NCBI GenBank assembly: GCA_963785725.1
Contig: CAWAWS010000003.1
Coordinates: 64,001-128,000 of the forward strand
From: an uncultured delta proteobacterium
Lineage (GTDB): Bacteria; Myxococcota_A; Polyangia; Palsa-1104
Length of the DNA: 64,000 bases
Direction: 5' to 3'
Shown: positions 59,489-64,000 of the stretch, piece by piece
How the letters are laid out: the number at the start of each line of letters is the position of its first letter
How positions within the stretch are numbered: the first letter of the stretch is position 1
Notes under the pieces: generated by a model
Databases searched by the model: none
What the model saw: only the letters and a program-made list of their open reading frames with translations
Told to the model about the DNA's origin: nothing
Position numbers and translations under genes: made by a program

Positions 59489-59654
59489 CGCTGCGCCGAA
59501 TGGCGACCTCATGAGAAGTATGGGCGGAGAGCGGCGGTCACGATCCGCACGCAAAAGCGCGCACCGGTTTCGAGCCGGGCTCGGGGCCATCCCCAATTCA
59601 CTCTCCGGAAGTTGCCCGCGAGAACCGGCGGGCGCGGCTGTTACGACGTGAAGC

Positions 59655-60821
59655 TCAGCCCTTTACGCACAAGAGCTGCTTGAGCTCGGCCACGATCTCG
59701 ACCAGATCGCGCTGATTGGCCATGACCTGATCGATCGCCTTATAGGCGCCGGGGATCTCGTCGATGACGCCGTGATCCTTGCGGCACTCCACTCCCGCCG
59801 TCTGCGCGCGCAGATCGTCGAGCGTGAACGTTCGCTTGGCCGCCGAGCGCGACATGCGGCGGCCGGCGCCGTGCGACGCCGACTCGAAGGACTCGGCGTT
59901 GCCCAGGCCGCGTACGATGTACGAACGCGTTCCCATCGAGCCGGGGATGATGCCGAGCTCGCCGCGTCCGGCGCGGATCGCGCCCTTGCGCGTCACCAGC
60001 AGCTCGGCGCCGAAGTGCTGCTCCTCGGCGACATAGTTGTGGTGGCACGAAATGGGCGGCGCGAACGCCACGTCGGACCGAACGAAGCGCGCGAGCACGG
60101 AGCGGTAGAGCTCGAGCATCACCTGCCGATTCGCCGCCGCGTAGCGCTGCGCCCAGAACAGATCGCGACGATACGCGGCCATTTCCGCCGTGCCGGCCAA
60201 AAATACGGCCAGGTCGCGATCGGGCAGCTCACGGTTATGCGCCAGCTGCTTGGCGCGATGGATATGCAGCTCCGCCAGCTCCTTGCCGATGTTGCGCGAA
60301 CCGGAATGCAACATCAGCCAGACGCGATCTTCGGTGTCGAGACAGAGCTCGATGAAGTGGTTGCCTCCGCCCAGCGTTCCCAGCTGCTTGCGCGCCTTGC
60401 CCTCCAGCGACTGCACGCGCTCGTCGAGCGCACCGAACTCGGCGAACAGGTCGTAGTGGCGGGCCAGCTTCACGTCGTCGTGCGCGTTGAAGCCGACGGG
60501 GATCAGCGCTTCGATCGCCGCGCGCAGATCGCCGAGCTGCTCGGGCAGATCGTGCGAGGTCAAGTTGGTGCGCTGCGCGGCCATGCCGCAGCCGATATCG
60601 ACGCCGACGGCCGCGGGCGCGATCGCGTCTTTCATCGCCACGACCGAGCCGACGGTGGCGCCCTTGCCGAGGTGCACGTCGGGCATCACCGCGACGTGCG
60701 AGAAGCACCACGGCAGCGACGCGATGTTCTTGAGCTGCGTCAACGCCGCCGACTCGACCTCTTCGAGCGGCGCCCACATCTTGATGGGTACGTTCTTTCC
60801 TTTGAGCTCCGAGATGGACAT
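59655..60821 (-). CDS. rtcB: RtcB RNA 2',3'-cyclic phosphate/5'-OH ligase
   Basis: MPDVHLGKG; VGVDIGCG; GTLGGGNHFIE; LHSGSR; CHHNY; RKGA; IPGSMG; SHGAGR; DEIPGAYK. Confidence 0.97.
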   Translation of the reverse strand: MSISELKGKNVPIKMWAPLEEVESAALTQLKNIASLPWCFSHVAVMPDVHLGKGATVGSVVAMKDAIAPAAVGVDIGCGMAAQRTNLTSHDLPEQLGDLRAAIEALIPVGFNAHDDVKLARHYDLFAEFGALDERVQSLEGKARKQLGTLGGGNHFIELCLDTEDRVWLMLHSGSRNIGKELAELHIHRAKQLAHNRELPDRDLAVFLAGTAEMAAYRRDLFWAQRYAAANRQVMLELYRSVLARFVRSDVAFAPPISCHHNYVAEEQHFGAELLVTRKGAIRAGRGELGIIPGSMGTRSYIVRGLGNAESFESASHGAGRRMSRSAAKRTFTLDDLRAQTAGVECRKDHGVIDEIPGAYKAIDQVMANQRDLVEIVAELKQLLCVKG

Positions 60822-60966
60822 GGGTTGTCTCCATTGTCTGGGTGAAAGATAAAGCGATCAATCGCCGCCGTCGTGCTCGAGCTCGCCGTCTCAATGGACG
60901 GCGTTGCGCAGCCAGGCGCGCCTGCCGCGGCAGAGCGTCTGTGCGCGCGACGGGCCGATGCTTTCG

Positions 60967-61040
60967 TGCTCCGAGCGCGATTCGAACGCGCACTGGACGA
61001 CTTCTGAGACCGTCGCCTCTACCGATTGGGCTATCGGAGC
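60967..61040 (-). tRNA. tRNA-Leu(CAG), atypical short variable loop
   Basis: GCTCCGA TA GCC CAATCGGTAGA GGC G ACGGT CT-CAG-AA GTCGT CCAGT GCGCG TTCGAAT CGCGC TCGGAGC A. Confidence 0.85.
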
Positions 61041-61069
61041 AAAACAGAGTGCCTCGGGCAGAGAGTGAG

Positions 61070-61136
61070 CAGGTCGCCGAGGAGTCGAACCTCGCTGCCC
61101 GGTTTTGGAAACCAGGCCGATCCCAGATCGCGACCC
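61070..61136 (-). tRNA. tRNA-Trp(CCA) with truncated D-arm
   Basis: GGGTCGC GATC-TGG-GATC GGC CTGGT TT-CCA-AA ACCGG GCAG CGAGG TTCGACT CCTCG GCGACCT G (67 nt, G73). Confidence 0.75.
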
Positions 61137-61152
61137 AAGGGCGAACAAAATT

Positions 61153-61229
61153 GCAGCTGGTGGAAACGGAGGGTTACTCCGCGTCGGACACCCGTGTCCG
61201 ACATTCCGGGTGGGGGATAACCCAGCTGC
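61153..61229 (-). ncRNA. Candidate Ro60-associated (Y-like) RNA, copy B
   Basis: Terminal stem GCAGCTGG/CCAGCTGC; unpaired GTTATCCCCCACCC; GGAA/TTCC; hairpins GTCGGACA/TGTCCGAC and GCGGAG/CTCCGT. Confidence 0.55.
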
Positions 61230-61270
61230 TCCGGCTCGCCGACAGCGAAACAAAACGCGGACGAGGAATC

Positions 61271-61337
61271 GGGCTGGGGTTGCGGGCTTCGAACCCGCGC
61301 CGGCGTTGGCCGGCTTCAACCGATGATAACCCAGCCC
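61271..61337 (-). ncRNA. Candidate Ro60-associated (Y-like) RNA, copy A, with T-arm
   Basis: Terminal stem GGGCTGG/CCAGCCC; unpaired GTTATCATC; GGTT/AACC; hairpin GCCGGC-CAAC-GCCGGC; T-arm GCGGG-TTCGAAG-CCCGC. Confidence 0.6.
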
Positions 61338-61349
61338 ATTCGGCCCGCG

Positions 61350-61423
61350 TGGAGCCACTCGTCGGAGTCGAACCGCCTTGCCCGTATACGAGACGGGTGC
61401 CTTCCCGGAAGGCAACGAGGGGC
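61350..61423 (-). tRNA. tRNA-Thr(CGT), atypical, CCA encoded
   Basis: GCCCCTC GTT GCCTT CCGGG AAGGC A CCCGT CT-CGT-AT ACGGG CAA GGCGG TTCGACT CCGAC GAGTGGC T CCA; one mismatch each in the acceptor and T stems. Confidence 0.78.
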
Positions 61424-61495
61424 AAATGCCGGCCGCGATCGGCCGGCGGTATTACTCAGTCTTCGAACGCGCTCGTGTTCCCATTACAGTTACAG

Positions 61496-63145
61496 TTACG
61501 GACGTGGCCGCGTGCGCGCGAAGTCGGCCAAGATCGTCGGCGTGGCCGTATCGAAGCCGACCACGTCGAGCATCCCGGCATCCGTCGGATCGGCGATCGA
61601 GAAGCCGTTCGACACCATGCCCACGACCACCAGCTTGGCCGCGATTCCCAGGCGCTGCCGATACTGTCGCAGCGCCTGCGCCGGATGGATGCCGCCGGCC
61701 CACGTCTCCGAGTCGGTGTAGATGACGAACGTATCCACCTCGACGCGGCGCTCGATCGCCCACAACATCGGCTGCGCGCAGTCGGTGCCGCCGAAGGGCA
61801 GCCCGCTGACCCGCTCGACGGCGCGGTCGAGCCGCCAGTGCGGCGAGATGTCGAGCTCCGTCAGCGACGGTGCACCGCCACCATATTGCCCGCCGTACTG
61901 GCCGTTGCCGGCGCTCGTGAAGGCGACGAAGGCGTGCTGCTTCTCCGTCGCCGCCGTCACCAGCGCCATCGCCGCGCTCGCCACGCGCGGCGTCAGCCCG
62001 GGCACGCCCGCCACCGCGCCGCCGTCCATCGAGCCCGAGACGTCGAGCGCCAGCAGCGTCCGCATGCCCGATGGCTCGACATGCTTGAACGACGCATGGA
62101 ACGCGTCGCTCAGCGCGTCGACGATCGCGGCCCGCGGCGTCCACGTGTGCTGGCCGCGGACGCCGCGACCGGCGGCGTACGTCTTGAGCGCCGCCAGGAT
62201 CGCGATCGGATGGATGCGCGCCGCCGCCAGCCGCGCGCCGTCGCGCAGCCGGTCGGCCACGAGCCGCGTGGCGTCGCTGAGCACGCCCAGCAGCCCGACG
62301 CGGGTCATCGTCGCCAGGTTGCGGATCAGCGCCGCCAGCGGCATGTGCTCGAGCAGCGCCTCCCACACGCGCGCCTCGTCGAGCCACACCGTCGGGACGC
62401 ACTCGCGCGGCAGGTTGTGCTGCGTCACCAGCCGCACGATCTCGCGCACGTCGGTCGCGCGCTTGGCCTGCTCGAAGGCGTCGACGAGCGCCAGCGCCGG
62501 CGGCACCGGCTGCCGCAGCTCGCCGCGCACGATCCAATGATAGAGCTCGTCGTGCTCGGCCGACGGCGCCTTCGGGTGGGCGAGACGCAGCAGATCGCGC
62601 GTCGACCAGCCGTCGCGCGACTGATACTTCACCGCCTGGTACGCGACAGTACCAACGGGCTTGTCATTGAACCAGCGCTGCACCGCCGTCCGCGTAGCGC
62701 GGCCCCAACCACCGAACGCTTGTACGTATTCGGCGAAGTGCATGAGGTGCGTGCCCGTGCGGCAGACCTGGGGCAGCGCCGCCAGGGCCGCGCGGCGCGT
62801 CGCGAAGTCGCCGCGCTTGGCGGCCATCGCCAGCGCGAAGATCGCCGGATCGTTCTTGGGCGCCCGGCCGGCGTCGCTGACGGCGACGATCTGCGCGACG
62901 GTGCGCGCGCCGTCGCCGTCGATGCAGCGGGCGACCGCCTCGGCGTTCTCCCGCGTCAACGCCGGCTCCTTGGCGTAATAGCTGCCGCCCTCGGTGCCGA
63001 GAATCAGGAAGCGGTCGAGCCGCGTCCAGTCGTCGACGGCCCAGGCGAAGCCGCCGCCGGAGTTGGCGACCTGCGTCGAGCCCGGAATGGGCTGCGACTG
63101 CGGCGTCTGGTTGAGCGAGAACAGCTTTCCATAGTTGATACCCAC
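61496..63145 (-). CDS. rsr: Ro60/Rsr TROVE-domain RNA-binding protein with vWA domain
   Basis: QVANSGGGFAW..DDW.RLDRFLILGTEGGSYY; KYQSRDGWS.RDLLRLAHP; MP..ALIRNL; IHP; MIDAS DVSGSM; GGTDC; YTDSETW; DVVGFD. SD AAGGAGGTGA precedes the GTG start. Confidence 0.95.
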   Translation of the reverse strand: MGINYGKLFSLNQTPQSQPIPGSTQVANSGGGFAWAVDDWTRLDRFLILGTEGGSYYAKEPALTRENAEAVARCIDGDGARTVAQIVAVSDAGRAPKNDPAIFALAMAAKRGDFATRRAALAALPQVCRTGTHLMHFAEYVQAFGGWGRATRTAVQRWFNDKPVGTVAYQAVKYQSRDGWSTRDLLRLAHPKAPSAEHDELYHWIVRGELRQPVPPALALVDAFEQAKRATDVREIVRLVTQHNLPRECVPTVWLDEARVWEALLEHMPLAALIRNLATMTRVGLLGVLSDATRLVADRLRDGARLAAARIHPIAILAALKTYAAGRGVRGQHTWTPRAAIVDALSDAFHASFKHVEPSGMRTLLALDVSGSMDGGAVAGVPGLTPRVASAAMALVTAATEKQHAFVAFTSAGNGQYGGQYGGGAPSLTELDISPHWRLDRAVERVSGLPFGGTDCAQPMLWAIERRVEVDTFVIYTDSETWAGGIHPAQALRQYRQRLGIAAKLVVVGMVSNGFSIADPTDAGMLDVVGFDTATPTILADFARTRPRP

Positions 63146-63187
63146 GGCTCACCTCCTTACGGCCCGCTCCATACGGGCGATTCAGGT

Positions 63188-63263
63188 TGGTACGGAGCCA
63201 GGGAATCGAACCCTGCGCAGCGAGTTTGTAGGACTCGTATCACCCCCAGGTGAGCTGCTCCGC
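63188..63263 (-). tRNA. tRNA-Val(TAC), atypical D-arm, CCA encoded
   Basis: GCGGAGC AGC TCACC TGGG GGTGA TA CGAGT CC-TAC-AA ACTCG CTGCG CAGGG TTCGATT CCCTG GCTCCGT A CCA. Confidence 0.8.
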
Positions 63264-63284
63264 ATGAAATGCAATGCAATGACG

Positions 63285-63357
63285 TGCTCCCGGCAGGAGT
63301 CGAACCTGCAATGTCCGGTTTAGAAGACCGGCGCCCATTCCATTGGGCTTCGAGAGC
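63285..63357 (-). tRNA. tRNA-Arg(TCT)
   Basis: GCTCTCG AA GCCC AATGGAAT GGGC G CCGGT CT-TCT-AA ACCGG ACATT GCAGG TTCGACT CCTGC CGGGAGC A. Confidence 0.9.
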
Positions 63358-63377
63358 GATTGGACGCAAACAAGCAG

Positions 63378-63450
63378 TGCTCCCGGCAGGAGTCGAACCT
63401 GCACTTCATCCTTCGCAGGGATGTGACCTATCCATTAGTGCGACGGGAGC
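63378..63450 (-). tRNA. tRNA-Arg(GCG)
   Basis: GCTCCCG TC GCACTAATGGATAGGTC A CATCC CT-GCG-AA GGATG AAGT GCAGG TTCGACT CCTGC CGGGAGC A; weak D-stem. Confidence 0.82.
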
Positions 63451-63464
63451 TTGAATACATCGAG

Positions 63465-63536
63465 TGTCCTCGCCAGGAATCGAACCTGGAATGTCGGCTT
63501 CGGAGACCGGCGTGAGATCCATTTCACTACGAGGAC
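63465..63536 (-). tRNA. tRNA-Arg(CCG)
   Basis: GTCCTCG TA GTGA AATGGATC TCAC G CCGGT CT-CCG-AA GCCGA CATT CCAGG TTCGATT CCTGG CGAGGAC A. Confidence 0.88.
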
Positions 63537-63556
63537 GACGCTGTCACTTCAGTGAG

Positions 63557-63749
63557 TAGTCGTGGCGGGATTCGAACCCGCACGGTCGAAGCAAGAGATC
63601 CTCTGAGGAAACGCGCTTCCCTGCCAAAGCGTTCCCGCCCGGGCCCGGTGCATCCGTAAACCTTGGATCTCGCCGCCGTCAGGCGTCTCCGACTGCTTTC
63701 GCTATCGGTTTCCGTTTTTCCGACGCGCTCCCTTTTGCGCTACACGACC
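63557..63749 (-). ncRNA. tRNA-shaped RNA with a 128-nt structured insert replacing the anticodon loop
   Basis: Acceptor GGTCGTG/CACGACT plus A; TA; D-arm GCGC-AAAAGGGA-GCGC; G; stem TCGGA/TTCGA enclosing 63591-63718; CCGT; T-arm GCGGG-TTCGAAT-CCCGC. Confidence 0.75.
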
Positions 63750-63760
63750 ATTCGAAACGG

Positions 63761-63833
63761 TGGAGTCGGAGGGAGTTGAACCCTCGTCTCTGCGATGCGA
63801 GCGCAGCGTGTTCCCGTTATTCACCACGACCCC
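63761..63833 (-). tRNA. tRNA-Ala(CGC)
   Basis: GGGGTCG TG GTGAATAACGGGAACAC G CTGCG CT-CGC-AT CGCAG AGAC GAGGG TTCAACT CCCTC CGACTCC A; G3:U70 and A73 present. Confidence 0.9.
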
Positions 63834-63918
63834 TTGCTACAGCGGCGAGACACGACGAGCAGTGTTGAAAGACCGAGCGCGTCCTGCATAGGTCGTCATT
63901 CGGCGTTTCATTCAGCTG

Positions 63919-63991
63919 CGCCCCAGCGAGGAGTCGAACCTCGTTCTCCGGTGCTTCAGACCAGCGCGTAGACCGCATACGCTACCGGGGC
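63919..63991 (-). tRNA. tRNA-Phe(GAA)
   Basis: GCCCCGG TA GCGT ATGCGGTCT ACGC G CTGGT CT-GAA-GC ACCGG AGAA CGAGG TTCGACT CCTCG CTGGGGC G. Confidence 0.85.
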
Positions 63992-64000
63992 GTGGCGCCT

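Follow-up and report, generated by a model that had tools for sequence, protein, structure and literature searches.

Introduction

The closest described systems to the locus studied here are the Salmonella rsr-yrlBA-rtcBA operon, which is under RtcR, and the long tRNA arrays known as L-arrays. Our locus lies at the right-hand end of a 64,000-nt stretch of DNA from an uncultured delta proteobacterium (the window; positions 64001-128000 of contig C3, CAWAWS010000003.1). The genome, G000, is 8.9 Mb in size and 88% complete. About 22 sequence-divergent tRNA genes, all in one orientation, make up the array, which also holds the Ro60 gene (rsr), two Y-like RNAs, the RNA ligase gene rtcB, and a 193-nt RNA with the frame of a tRNA, which we call RNA X. 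The family to which RNA X belongs is real and conserved and seems not to have been described before, and the array is preceded by a predicted leader-peptide attenuator. Coordinates without a prefix refer to the window and those with a prefix to contigs (C) or collected loci (L). 

As in the Salmonella operon (PMC7790460, PMC4201824), rsr, two Y-like RNAs and rtcB lie on one strand, and the theme of tRNA damage is shared. The window locus differs in carrying about 22 tRNA genes and a predicted attenuator, and in what accompanies rtcB: neither rtcA nor rtcR, which a reading of the window from its sequence only had already reported as missing there, was found anywhere in the genome as assembled (PF01137, PF06956). 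The search extended to a sigma-54 promoter, and no sigma-54 motif was found in the 1 kb upstream.

With the L-arrays, including the trn operon of Anabaena PCC 7120 (PMC8421152), and with the mycobacterial tRNA clusters (PMC6582537), the locus shares supernumerary divergent tRNAs, rtcB and dps neighbours, a short-loop tRNA-Leu and a patchy spread. The run of tRNA genes in the window is long and co-oriented, as in an L-array; of the HNH endonuclease gene of such arrays it keeps a relic, and an intact one is present at a second locus of the genome. That rtcB can stand beside long tRNA arrays is already known, and translation stress induces both the Anabaena L-array and rtcB (PMC8421152). The Anabaena array has promoter direct repeats, whereas the window locus has a leader open reading frame (ORF) with a terminator. 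TROVE and Ro60 have zero occurrences in the main text of PMC8421152, and no description of Ro60 inside tRNA arrays was found in the literature searched, which left out the main Ro60 reviews. The operon is a new combination of known parts with a predicted new switch, as judged by a literature search on upstream-ORF attenuation in general.

The layout of this switch resembles the upstream-ORF attenuator of whiB7/wblC (PMC10274678), with a leader of diverse amino acids, a terminator that forms if the leader is translated and an antiterminator that forms, by prediction here, if the ribosome stalls. It differs in being predicted to control a tRNA/Ro60/RtcB operon, not a transcription factor. Whether two statements hold together, that RNA X represents a functional class of non-coding RNA not described so far, a natural tRNA scaffold whose conserved tertiary core docks on its own anticodon-position loop and which serves bacteria and phages actively in the response to tRNA damage (as partner, decoy or ribozyme), and that all-amino-acid leader attenuation is a common switch turning on Ro60 spare-tRNA operons when decoding fails, is in our judgement evenly balanced.

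RNA X belongs to an apparently undescribed RNA family

In RNA X (63557..63749, minus strand), acceptor, D and T arms are present, the place of the anticodon is taken by an A-rich loop of 11 nt, and the variable arm is long and bears a conserved core. It had been described from sequence as a tRNA-shaped RNA; the tRNA frame is present, but membership in a large conserved family had gone unrecognised. Rfam gave no match to RNA X beyond generic tRNA. The family was entered through a weak homologue in array L095, which gave two shared motifs. These two motifs together with a T-loop motif were found in at least 14 viral contigs and at least 120 metagenome stretches. A pattern of the core only matched 19 viral stretches; seven were viewed, of which three had the core with the frame and four, having no frame, were chance matches. 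A 17-base pattern applied to 401 genomes returned mostly chance matches, as judged by the control, and three were kept after inspection. From 158 loci examined, 151 matched, 146 had the acceptor stem and 115 were unique; 16 of these were dropped on score and one was kept by hand, giving 99 kept sequences and 74 after removal of redundancy. The family has at least 74 non-redundant members of 151-265 nt, from bacteria, metagenomes and phages.

Conservation of the tRNA frame was assessed in an alignment of 51 members. The D stem is 85% paired and the T stem 99%. Pairing is also 99% in the acceptor stem, where both partners change at 7/7 pairs, a result that is favoured because fit to the 3' acceptor strand decided where the 5' end was placed. 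Among the 74 sequences, U8 is present in 70; 71 of 72 have the D-loop GG, and 70 of 72 form a hairpin where the anticodon arm would be. All three lay outside the query, although U8, the D stem and the A-run did score in the choice of the 5' end. A genomic CCA end is about as frequent in RNA X (10/74) as in the tRNAs of rsr loci (104/762). N73 is a purine in 70/74, and the acceptor pairs, including 1:72, vary freely, as does N73. The variable region measures 65-197 nt. The loop at the anticodon position contains an A-run and spans 7-28 nt, with exactly 7 nt in one of 70 copies.

The loop with the A-run can base-pair with the 3' strand of the core, which is rich in U. The mean duplex length was 4.93 bp compared to 4.40 +/- 0.07 bp in 2000 shuffles, a difference inflated by the relatedness of the sequences. 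C-G to U-A swaps occur within this pairing in six copies; a competing local helix matches the data roughly equally well.

A loop of 7-28 nt that is predicted to be paired with the core, together with a long variable region, variable acceptor pairs and a variable N73, means that RNA X cannot be an ordinary decoder. The 7-nt loop and fixed synthetase identity of a decoding tRNA are not found. Other known identities were also rejected. ARAGORN (-i) reads RNA X as an intron-split tRNA-Lys, but excision restores 5/5 anticodon pairs in only 4/72 copies, compared to 1.9 +/- 1.2 in shuffled sequences. As a transfer-messenger RNA (tmRNA), it would be expected to carry G3:U70, which is present in 7/74, and the matches to the tmRNA model are T-arm fragments only. 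It is not a dispersed repeat, as the genome holds no second copy. T4 RNA C/D and T5 RNA1/RNA2 (record annotations) resemble RNA X in being oversized stable or tRNA-like RNAs within tRNA clusters; however, they lack the core motifs and show no homology by the RNA X model, scoring at most 18.5 bits, no more than ordinary tRNAs do, where true members reach 67-75 bits. YrlA (RF02553), tmRNA and GOLLD do not decode either, and they contain tRNA-like parts or occur close to genes for Ro60 or tRNAs. Unlike them, RNA X has an acceptor stem in the normal 5'/3' order, a D stem and a core of its own, and their models do not cover it. The core motifs did not occur in six of the nine supplementary files of PMC10690425, and in the literature searched the RNA X family apparently has no description.

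Distribution and neighbours of RNA X

Using a detection model composed of the core and the T arm, we followed RNA X into phages and bacteria. It matches 13 Streptomyces phage records, with cover of at least 80% in six. Under the match nothing is annotated in 12 of the 13, and a hypothetical protein in the remaining one. In phage Alone3, RNA X stands within a tRNA array whose last gene is Ro-like; in phage Kela it is also within a tRNA array, and in phage Comrade it lies between tmRNA, Band-7, HNH and RNA ligase genes. TROVE was found in four of five phage records with RNA X (three over the cut-off), in addition to Alone3. A query of plasmids gave no RNA X match, and two further BLAST queries of phages gave short matches only.

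tRNA genes near RNA X are on the same strand in 39/74 loci and on the opposite strand in none of the 74. The flanking ORFs, of which 104 of 133 were scanned, include RtcB, TROVE, SPFH (2), a T4-type RNA ligase, DUF7788, YqeY (3), HNH and RecA, and also unrelated metabolic genes. No protein recurs as a constant partner in more than four loci. YrlA-like RNAs were detected near RNA X in four of the 33 loci scanned. Ro60 is present in five of seven bacterial genomes with RNA X, which are not independent, compared to Rsr matches in 38 of the 201 genomes of the window's class; three genomes with a stand-alone RNA X carry Ro60 elsewhere. The gene upstream of one stand-alone copy (L287; G352:C27) is presumably CarD-like.

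A separate small RNA was noticed in one of these loci. At L154:1422-1581, 10 nt upstream of RNA X and ahead of a YqeY gene, there is a 160-nt RNase P-like RNA without a specificity domain, of which close copies occur in L166, L233 and L235. Such an RNA adjoins RNA X in a single lineage. A split RNase P candidate in L150 had no Rfam support and was rejected.

A predicted attenuator precedes the array

The window locus and a second rsr locus on contig C39 begin alike, with a TTGACT box, an ORF of 49-50 codons and then a GC-rich hairpin about 31 nt past the stop codon. Upstream of the window array, these are the TTGACT box at C3:129866-129871, a 50-codon leader ORF at C3:129671-129823 and a predicted terminator hairpin at C3:129611-129639, all on the minus strand. 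In both loci the 5' arm of the hairpin is complementary to the end of the leader ORF. In computed folds the nascent leader forms an antiterminator, and covering the stop codon lets the terminator form. This is the layout of a whiB7-type attenuator, in which a leader ORF is followed shortly past its stop by a terminator and an antiterminator forms from the ORF end (PMC10274678).

To see how widely this layout occurs, a scripted search was applied to 37 arrays (36 without a duplicate), skipping three arrays that lack upstream DNA, with 41 upstream regions of housekeeping tRNAs as controls and an antiterminator threshold of -9 kcal/mol or better. An ORF with a terminator was found in 26/37 arrays compared to 7/41 controls, and an ORF with both terminator and antiterminator in 25/37 arrays (24/36 without the duplicate) compared to 2/41 controls. 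The amino acid content of the leaders was counted in 20 of the 26, after exclusion of the duplicate and of five with an unclear start or frame. The leader ORFs use 2.6 more amino acid types than same-length coding windows (19/20 above) and 2.2 more than their own shuffles (18/20 above), and five of the 20, that of the window included, use all 20 amino acids. A stalling signal of Pro-stop type was rejected, as it was present in only 3/26 leaders. No sigma-70 site was called at the thresholds of the promoter scan. A leader ORF with terminator and antiterminator suggests control by ribosome stalling, and the array is predicted to be controlled by a leader-peptide attenuator rather than by RtcR or sigma-54.

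Five actinomycete arrays (L016, L018, L019, L023 and L024) have a conserved non-coding stretch of about 400 nt that separates the first tRNA from the terminator of the leader. This stretch may be another structured RNA.

Ro60 recurs within tRNA arrays, and rtcB comes and goes

Two sets of loci were compared, with one contig common to both: 44 loci of Rsr relatives from GTDB and 27 loci from the window's class. An array was taken to be a locus with at least 10 co-oriented tRNAs. Since both sets were gathered by rsr, they show the share of rsr that lies in arrays, not the share of arrays that have rsr. Arrays made up 22/44 loci of the GTDB set, with tRNAs on both sides of rsr in 20 of the 22, and 14/27 loci of the class set, with rsr flanked by tRNAs on both sides in 13 of the 14. 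The named records include Myxococcota, Actinomycetota, Chloroflexota and Verrucomicrobiota. In the GTDB set rtcB was present in 10/22 arrays and 5/22 non-arrays, mostly at about 30% identity to the window RtcB; in the class set it was present in 2/14 arrays. An HNH gene was found in 19/36 arrays compared to 8/36 other loci.

The sequence-only reading had taken Ro60, RtcB and the tRNA array as a unit. Ro60 inside long arrays does recur across phyla, but rtcB proved to be an optional passenger. The steadier parts of the arrays are Ro60, Y RNAs and often an HNH gene.

A proposed role in translation stress

We propose the following sequence of events. Ribosomes that reach the stop codon of the leader ORF would cover the antiterminator strand, and transcription would end at the hairpin. 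Cut or uncharged tRNAs, or drugged ribosomes, would cause stalling at any point of a leader that uses all 20 amino acids, which would free the antiterminator so that the whole run is read through. The spare tRNAs could then refill the pool, RtcB could rejoin cut RNAs, and Ro60 with its Y RNAs could hand damaged RNA to nucleases, after the examples of Salmonella and Deinococcus (PMC4201824, PMC7790460). At the level of the operon, namely attenuation by leader stalling, tRNA refill, repair by RtcB and clearance by Ro60 and Y RNAs, we consider this account probable. With a role for RNA X included, we still favour a translation-stress operon under a predicted leader-peptide attenuator, with less assurance.

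RNA X itself would be matured like a tRNA yet be non-decoding, its anticodon-position loop being predicted to pair with the core of the variable arm. Its tRNA frame would provide for maturation and stability, and the conserved core would bind a conserved host partner, so that RNA X may be one more RNA that works in trans with the Ro60/RNA-repair pathway. This last assignment is tentative; we place it ahead of the rival roles below, yet hold it somewhat doubtful.

Several observations weigh against the proposal as a whole. In 10/74 RNA X copies, the first base after the A-run is unpaired in register. The search pattern itself prescribed the inner core helices, hence their invariance, and in copies found by BLAST or by the model two core positions vary without compensation. 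The window copy taken singly folds no better than its shuffles (z -1.1). The Ro-associated motif GNCGAA is absent from the core, which has A at the first position. RNA X is found in 2/72 rsr loci and in 4/151 class genomes, and is therefore an occasional member of these operons. In 35/74 RNA X loci no tRNA was seen, many of these loci being short-flanked, and three of the four other bacterial copies have no rsr, rtcB, HNH gene or tRNA within 7 kb. As for the leader, the script returned none in 11/37 arrays, and the counts of 26 and 25 in 37 come from thresholds chosen after examples were viewed and from related genomes that are not independent. The U tail of the window terminator is weak and could be drawn into the hairpin that it follows, and this terminator was missed by the terminator scan. 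rsr was found in neither of the two same-genus genomes searched. Finally, the window array shows signs of decay: a repeat interrupts a Glu(TTC)-like gene, the HNH gene is a relic, the tRNA-Val has C33 and several tRNAs lack U8.

A different use of the same tRNA frame is conceivable. RNA X may be a decoy for tRNA-attacking toxins or anticodon nucleases, which would bind the frame, find no cleavable anticodon and spare the real tRNAs. Its complete elbow and acceptor, the lack of a fixed synthetase identity (the 1:72 pair and N73 vary), a loop predicted to be locked, and its carriage by phages and tRNA arrays all fit this idea, and PMC8421152 considers that array tRNAs could serve as sponges. Such toxins would be host-specific, however, so a near-invariant core far from the anticodon position would be unexpected, and no toxin gene recurs next to RNA X. 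We regard the decoy as unlikely, if still worth serious consideration.

Alternatively, the core could be a ribozyme or a ligand-binding aptamer that is carried on a tRNA. Conserved unpaired purines in an asymmetric loop and the predicted pseudoknot, shared by bacterial and phage copies, are consistent with this, as are the RNA ligases among the neighbours; but no Rfam ribozyme or riboswitch model matches RNA X, and RNA X is not positioned as the 5' leader of a constant gene. We take this explanation to be improbable.

A reading of the whole locus without benefit to the host would be a decaying, phage-derived tRNA island spread by the HNH nuclease, with Ro60, rtcB and RNA X as cargo. The patchy distribution, the HNH genes in 19 of the 36 arrays, the HNH relic and repeat insertions in this genome, and the similar cargo of phages point in that direction. 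Against it stand the leader and attenuator geometry conserved in several phyla, the intact rsr and rtcB, the kept identity positions of tRNA-Leu, the chromosomal flanks without phage genes and the two copies kept in one genome. We think such an origin rather improbable as a full account of the locus.

RNA X, charged or not, might instead enter the ribosome or bind elongation factor Tu or RelA, with an effect in rescue or in damping the stringent response. The tRNA frame with its purine N73 in 70/74 copies and the translation-stress context, including the tmRNA nearby in phage Comrade, would suit such a ligand, whereas a variable region of 65-197 nt would be hard to fit in the A site and G3:U70 occurs in only 7/74; there is small reason to expect it. 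Very improbable is the notion that RNA X supplies in trans the elbow-reading specificity domain to a truncated RNase P RNA: it draws on the RNA beside RNA X in L154 with its copies in L166, L233 and L235, and on one core strand that fits AGNNA in most copies (PMC3664808), but a clean UGNNA partner loop was not seen, RNase P-like RNA is absent from 10/10 other virus records with RNA X (motif pattern 0/5), and the host has a full-length RNase P-like RNA.

If the translation-stress proposal is correct, the locus links spare tRNA arrays, Ro60 with its Y RNAs, and RtcB to a switch that reads tRNA failure on the ribosome. It would offer a candidate answer both to how cryptic tRNA arrays outside cyanobacteria are controlled and to what bacterial Ro60 is for. 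The RNA X family has more than 70 distinct sequences and no Rfam model, and its occurrence in cultured Streptomyces phages (Alone3, Comrade and others) makes it experimentally accessible. The T5 record still annotates oversized tRNA-like RNAs as of function unknown, and a covarying family gives a better handle than single cases.

Ro60, the Y-like RNAs and RtcB

The rsr gene (61496..63145, minus strand) encodes a 549-amino-acid Ro60 protein. TROVE and vWA_Ro60 domains in its product and PF01139 in that of rtcB bear out the earlier assignment of both genes to the run. The window Rsr matches Deinococcus radiodurans Rsr (2nvo) at E 3e-126, and scores 580 bits with NF041674, under the NCBIfam equivalog cut-off of 900. 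Its nearest named relatives are from myxococcotal and deltaproteobacterial bins.

Two small structured RNAs had been proposed between the Thr and Trp genes, and both fold well beyond their shuffles. Y-like RNA 1 (61257..61348, minus strand; z -5.2) has the GNCGAA motif, a T-loop hairpin and an order of parts like that of Deinococcus Yrn1. It shows all the marks of a bacterial Y RNA, sharing the strand of rsr at a distance of less than 4 kb, with a long closing stem and the motif; GNCGAA in bacterial Y RNAs and the partnership of Rsr, Y RNA and PNPase are described in PMC4201824. With RF01053 (Deinococcus Y RNA) it reaches 40 of 80 bits (E 1.7e-4), below the gathering score. Y-like RNA 2 (61140..61240, minus strand; z -4.5) has a long bulged closing stem, no tRNA-like arm and a variant motif in place of GNCGAA, and is probably YrlB-like. 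RNAs of this type recur, repeated after rsr, in L077 and L002. The Rfam search of the window gave no RF02553 (YrlA) match for either RNA.

The rtcB gene (59655..60821, minus strand) encodes a 388-amino-acid RNA ligase (PF01139, 425 bits). Its active-site columns, which we take to be the metal ligands and the guanylylated His, are conserved in alignment to PH1602. Upstream of rtcB, 43 bases (60872..60914, minus strand) match the end of the HNH gene of the C39 locus (nhmmer E 1.5e-5 to the intact HNH of L002), and represent the 3' end of an HNH endonuclease gene relic. A second rtcB occurs in the genome as two matched pieces at C39:447268-448323.

The second rsr locus is at about C39:623460-627800 (L002:3464-7800, minus strand), and its Rsr is 72% identical to that of the window. 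Its leader is like that of the window locus, and it contains some ten tRNA-like genes, three Y-like RNAs (one of them interrupted by the 165-nt dispersed repeat that also occurs in the window array), an intact HNH gene and a 71-amino-acid ORF without a Pfam match.

tRNA genes of the array

ARAGORN placed all nine of the tRNAs named earlier on the minus strand where they had been read: tRNA-Leu(CAG) (60966..61040), tRNA-Trp(CCA) with a minimal D arm (61070..61136; the 5' end given by ARAGORN overruns into the Y-like RNA), tRNA-Thr(CGT) (61350..61423), tRNA-Val(TAC), -Arg(TCT), -Arg(GCG) and -Arg(CCG) (63188..63536), tRNA-Ala(CGC) with G3:U70 (63759..63833; also Rfam) and tRNA-Phe(GAA) with an atypical G37-C38 loop (63918..63991). 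The last bases of the window had been taken for the CCA end of a further tRNA, and they are the 3' end of a tRNA-Asp(GTC) that straddles the window end (63993..64000, minus strand). Extending the contig rightwards added ten more ARAGORN tRNAs, and in total 20 are called from C3:124966 to 129345, every one on the minus strand. The genes beyond tRNA-Asp, at C3:128188-129345 on the minus strand, are Pro(TGG), a split Glu(TTC)-like gene, Glu(CTC), Cys, Asn, Gln, Gly(TCC), two Lys, Tyr and Gly(GCC). The split of the Glu(TTC)-like gene by a 165-nt repeat was read by eye, with two short pieces in the BLAST check.

Six of the nine tRNAs scored 51-63 bits with the Rfam tRNA model; Thr and Trp were weak and Val was unlisted. 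They had been called sequence-divergent, which agrees with their identity to the housekeeping isoacceptors, mostly 40-66%. No housekeeping Arg(GCG) or Val(TAC) was called in the genome (88% complete). Odd features among the array tRNAs (63188-63991; C3:128188-129345) include the lack of U8 in several, G37-C38 in Phe, C33 in Val and A37 in Leu.

The tRNA-Leu(CAG) has a short variable loop and keeps A14, A15, U48 and A73. Short-armed Leu tRNAs were found in 40/61 cases in rsr loci, of which 40/40 have A73, 38 have A14-A15 and 38 have U48; the short-armed tRNA-Leu is a family trait of rsr loci. The kept positions A73, A14-A15 and U48 would probably suffice for leucylation. A short-loop tRNA-Leu also occurs in a mycobacterial tRNA cluster (PMC6582537).

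Downstream of rtcB, a tRNA-Ser(CGA) gene (59525..59606, minus strand) was overlooked by ARAGORN. It has an 8-bp acceptor, a 6-bp D stem, a 4-bp T stem, a variable arm, a Ser anticodon and G73, and folds at z -2.4 against shuffles. (8/4) tRNA-Ser is a known type that occurs in tRNA clusters, and the gene 3' of rtcB looks like a new member, having the same acceptor, T stem and tRNA-cluster setting as the type described in PMC5389517, with no differences found. A homologue stands at the 3' end of array L077. Since this tRNA-Ser comes after rtcB, rtcB lies inside the run. The terminator scan agreed with the earlier view that the run has no clear terminator inside, except for one weak 5-bp minus-strand site just before rtcB. 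The earlier list held for its named genes but had overlooked the (8/4) tRNA-Ser, the HNH relic, the upstream leader and the second rsr and tRNA locus.

Flanking genes and minor observations

Prophage cargo had been named as an outcome that would speak against the link between the array and rsr/rtcB; the flanks are chromosomal. The genes identified there are a dps-like gene, lgt, and genes for a GDT1 transporter, an AMP-binding enzyme, kinases and transporters. No phage structural or integration genes occurred among the long ORFs of the flanks that passed length and codon filters, and the only PHROG 'tail' match is a serine-hydrolase-like protein.

The 165-nt inverted-repeat element is located at C3:128325-128489, with 11 other near-full copies in the genome. 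One tRNA gene and one gene for a Y-like RNA are interrupted by its insertion, and its ends resemble a CTAG target. Folded or tRNA-like remnants lie inside the array at C3:128065-128185, C3:129340-129440 and window positions 63834-63917; homologues of these three were absent from the collected loci. In other arrays, a 289-amino-acid ORF without a Pfam or PHROG match (L077:6645-7514; in 2/36 arrays) stands within the tRNA run, and in L007/L098 the run contains what is presumably the end of an elongation-factor-Tu-like ORF. The dps-like gene, found in 1/36 arrays, is divergent from the promoter of the window array (L001:9333-9887; C3:130332-130886, plus strand), and dpsA neighbours cyanobacterial L-arrays (PMC8421152).

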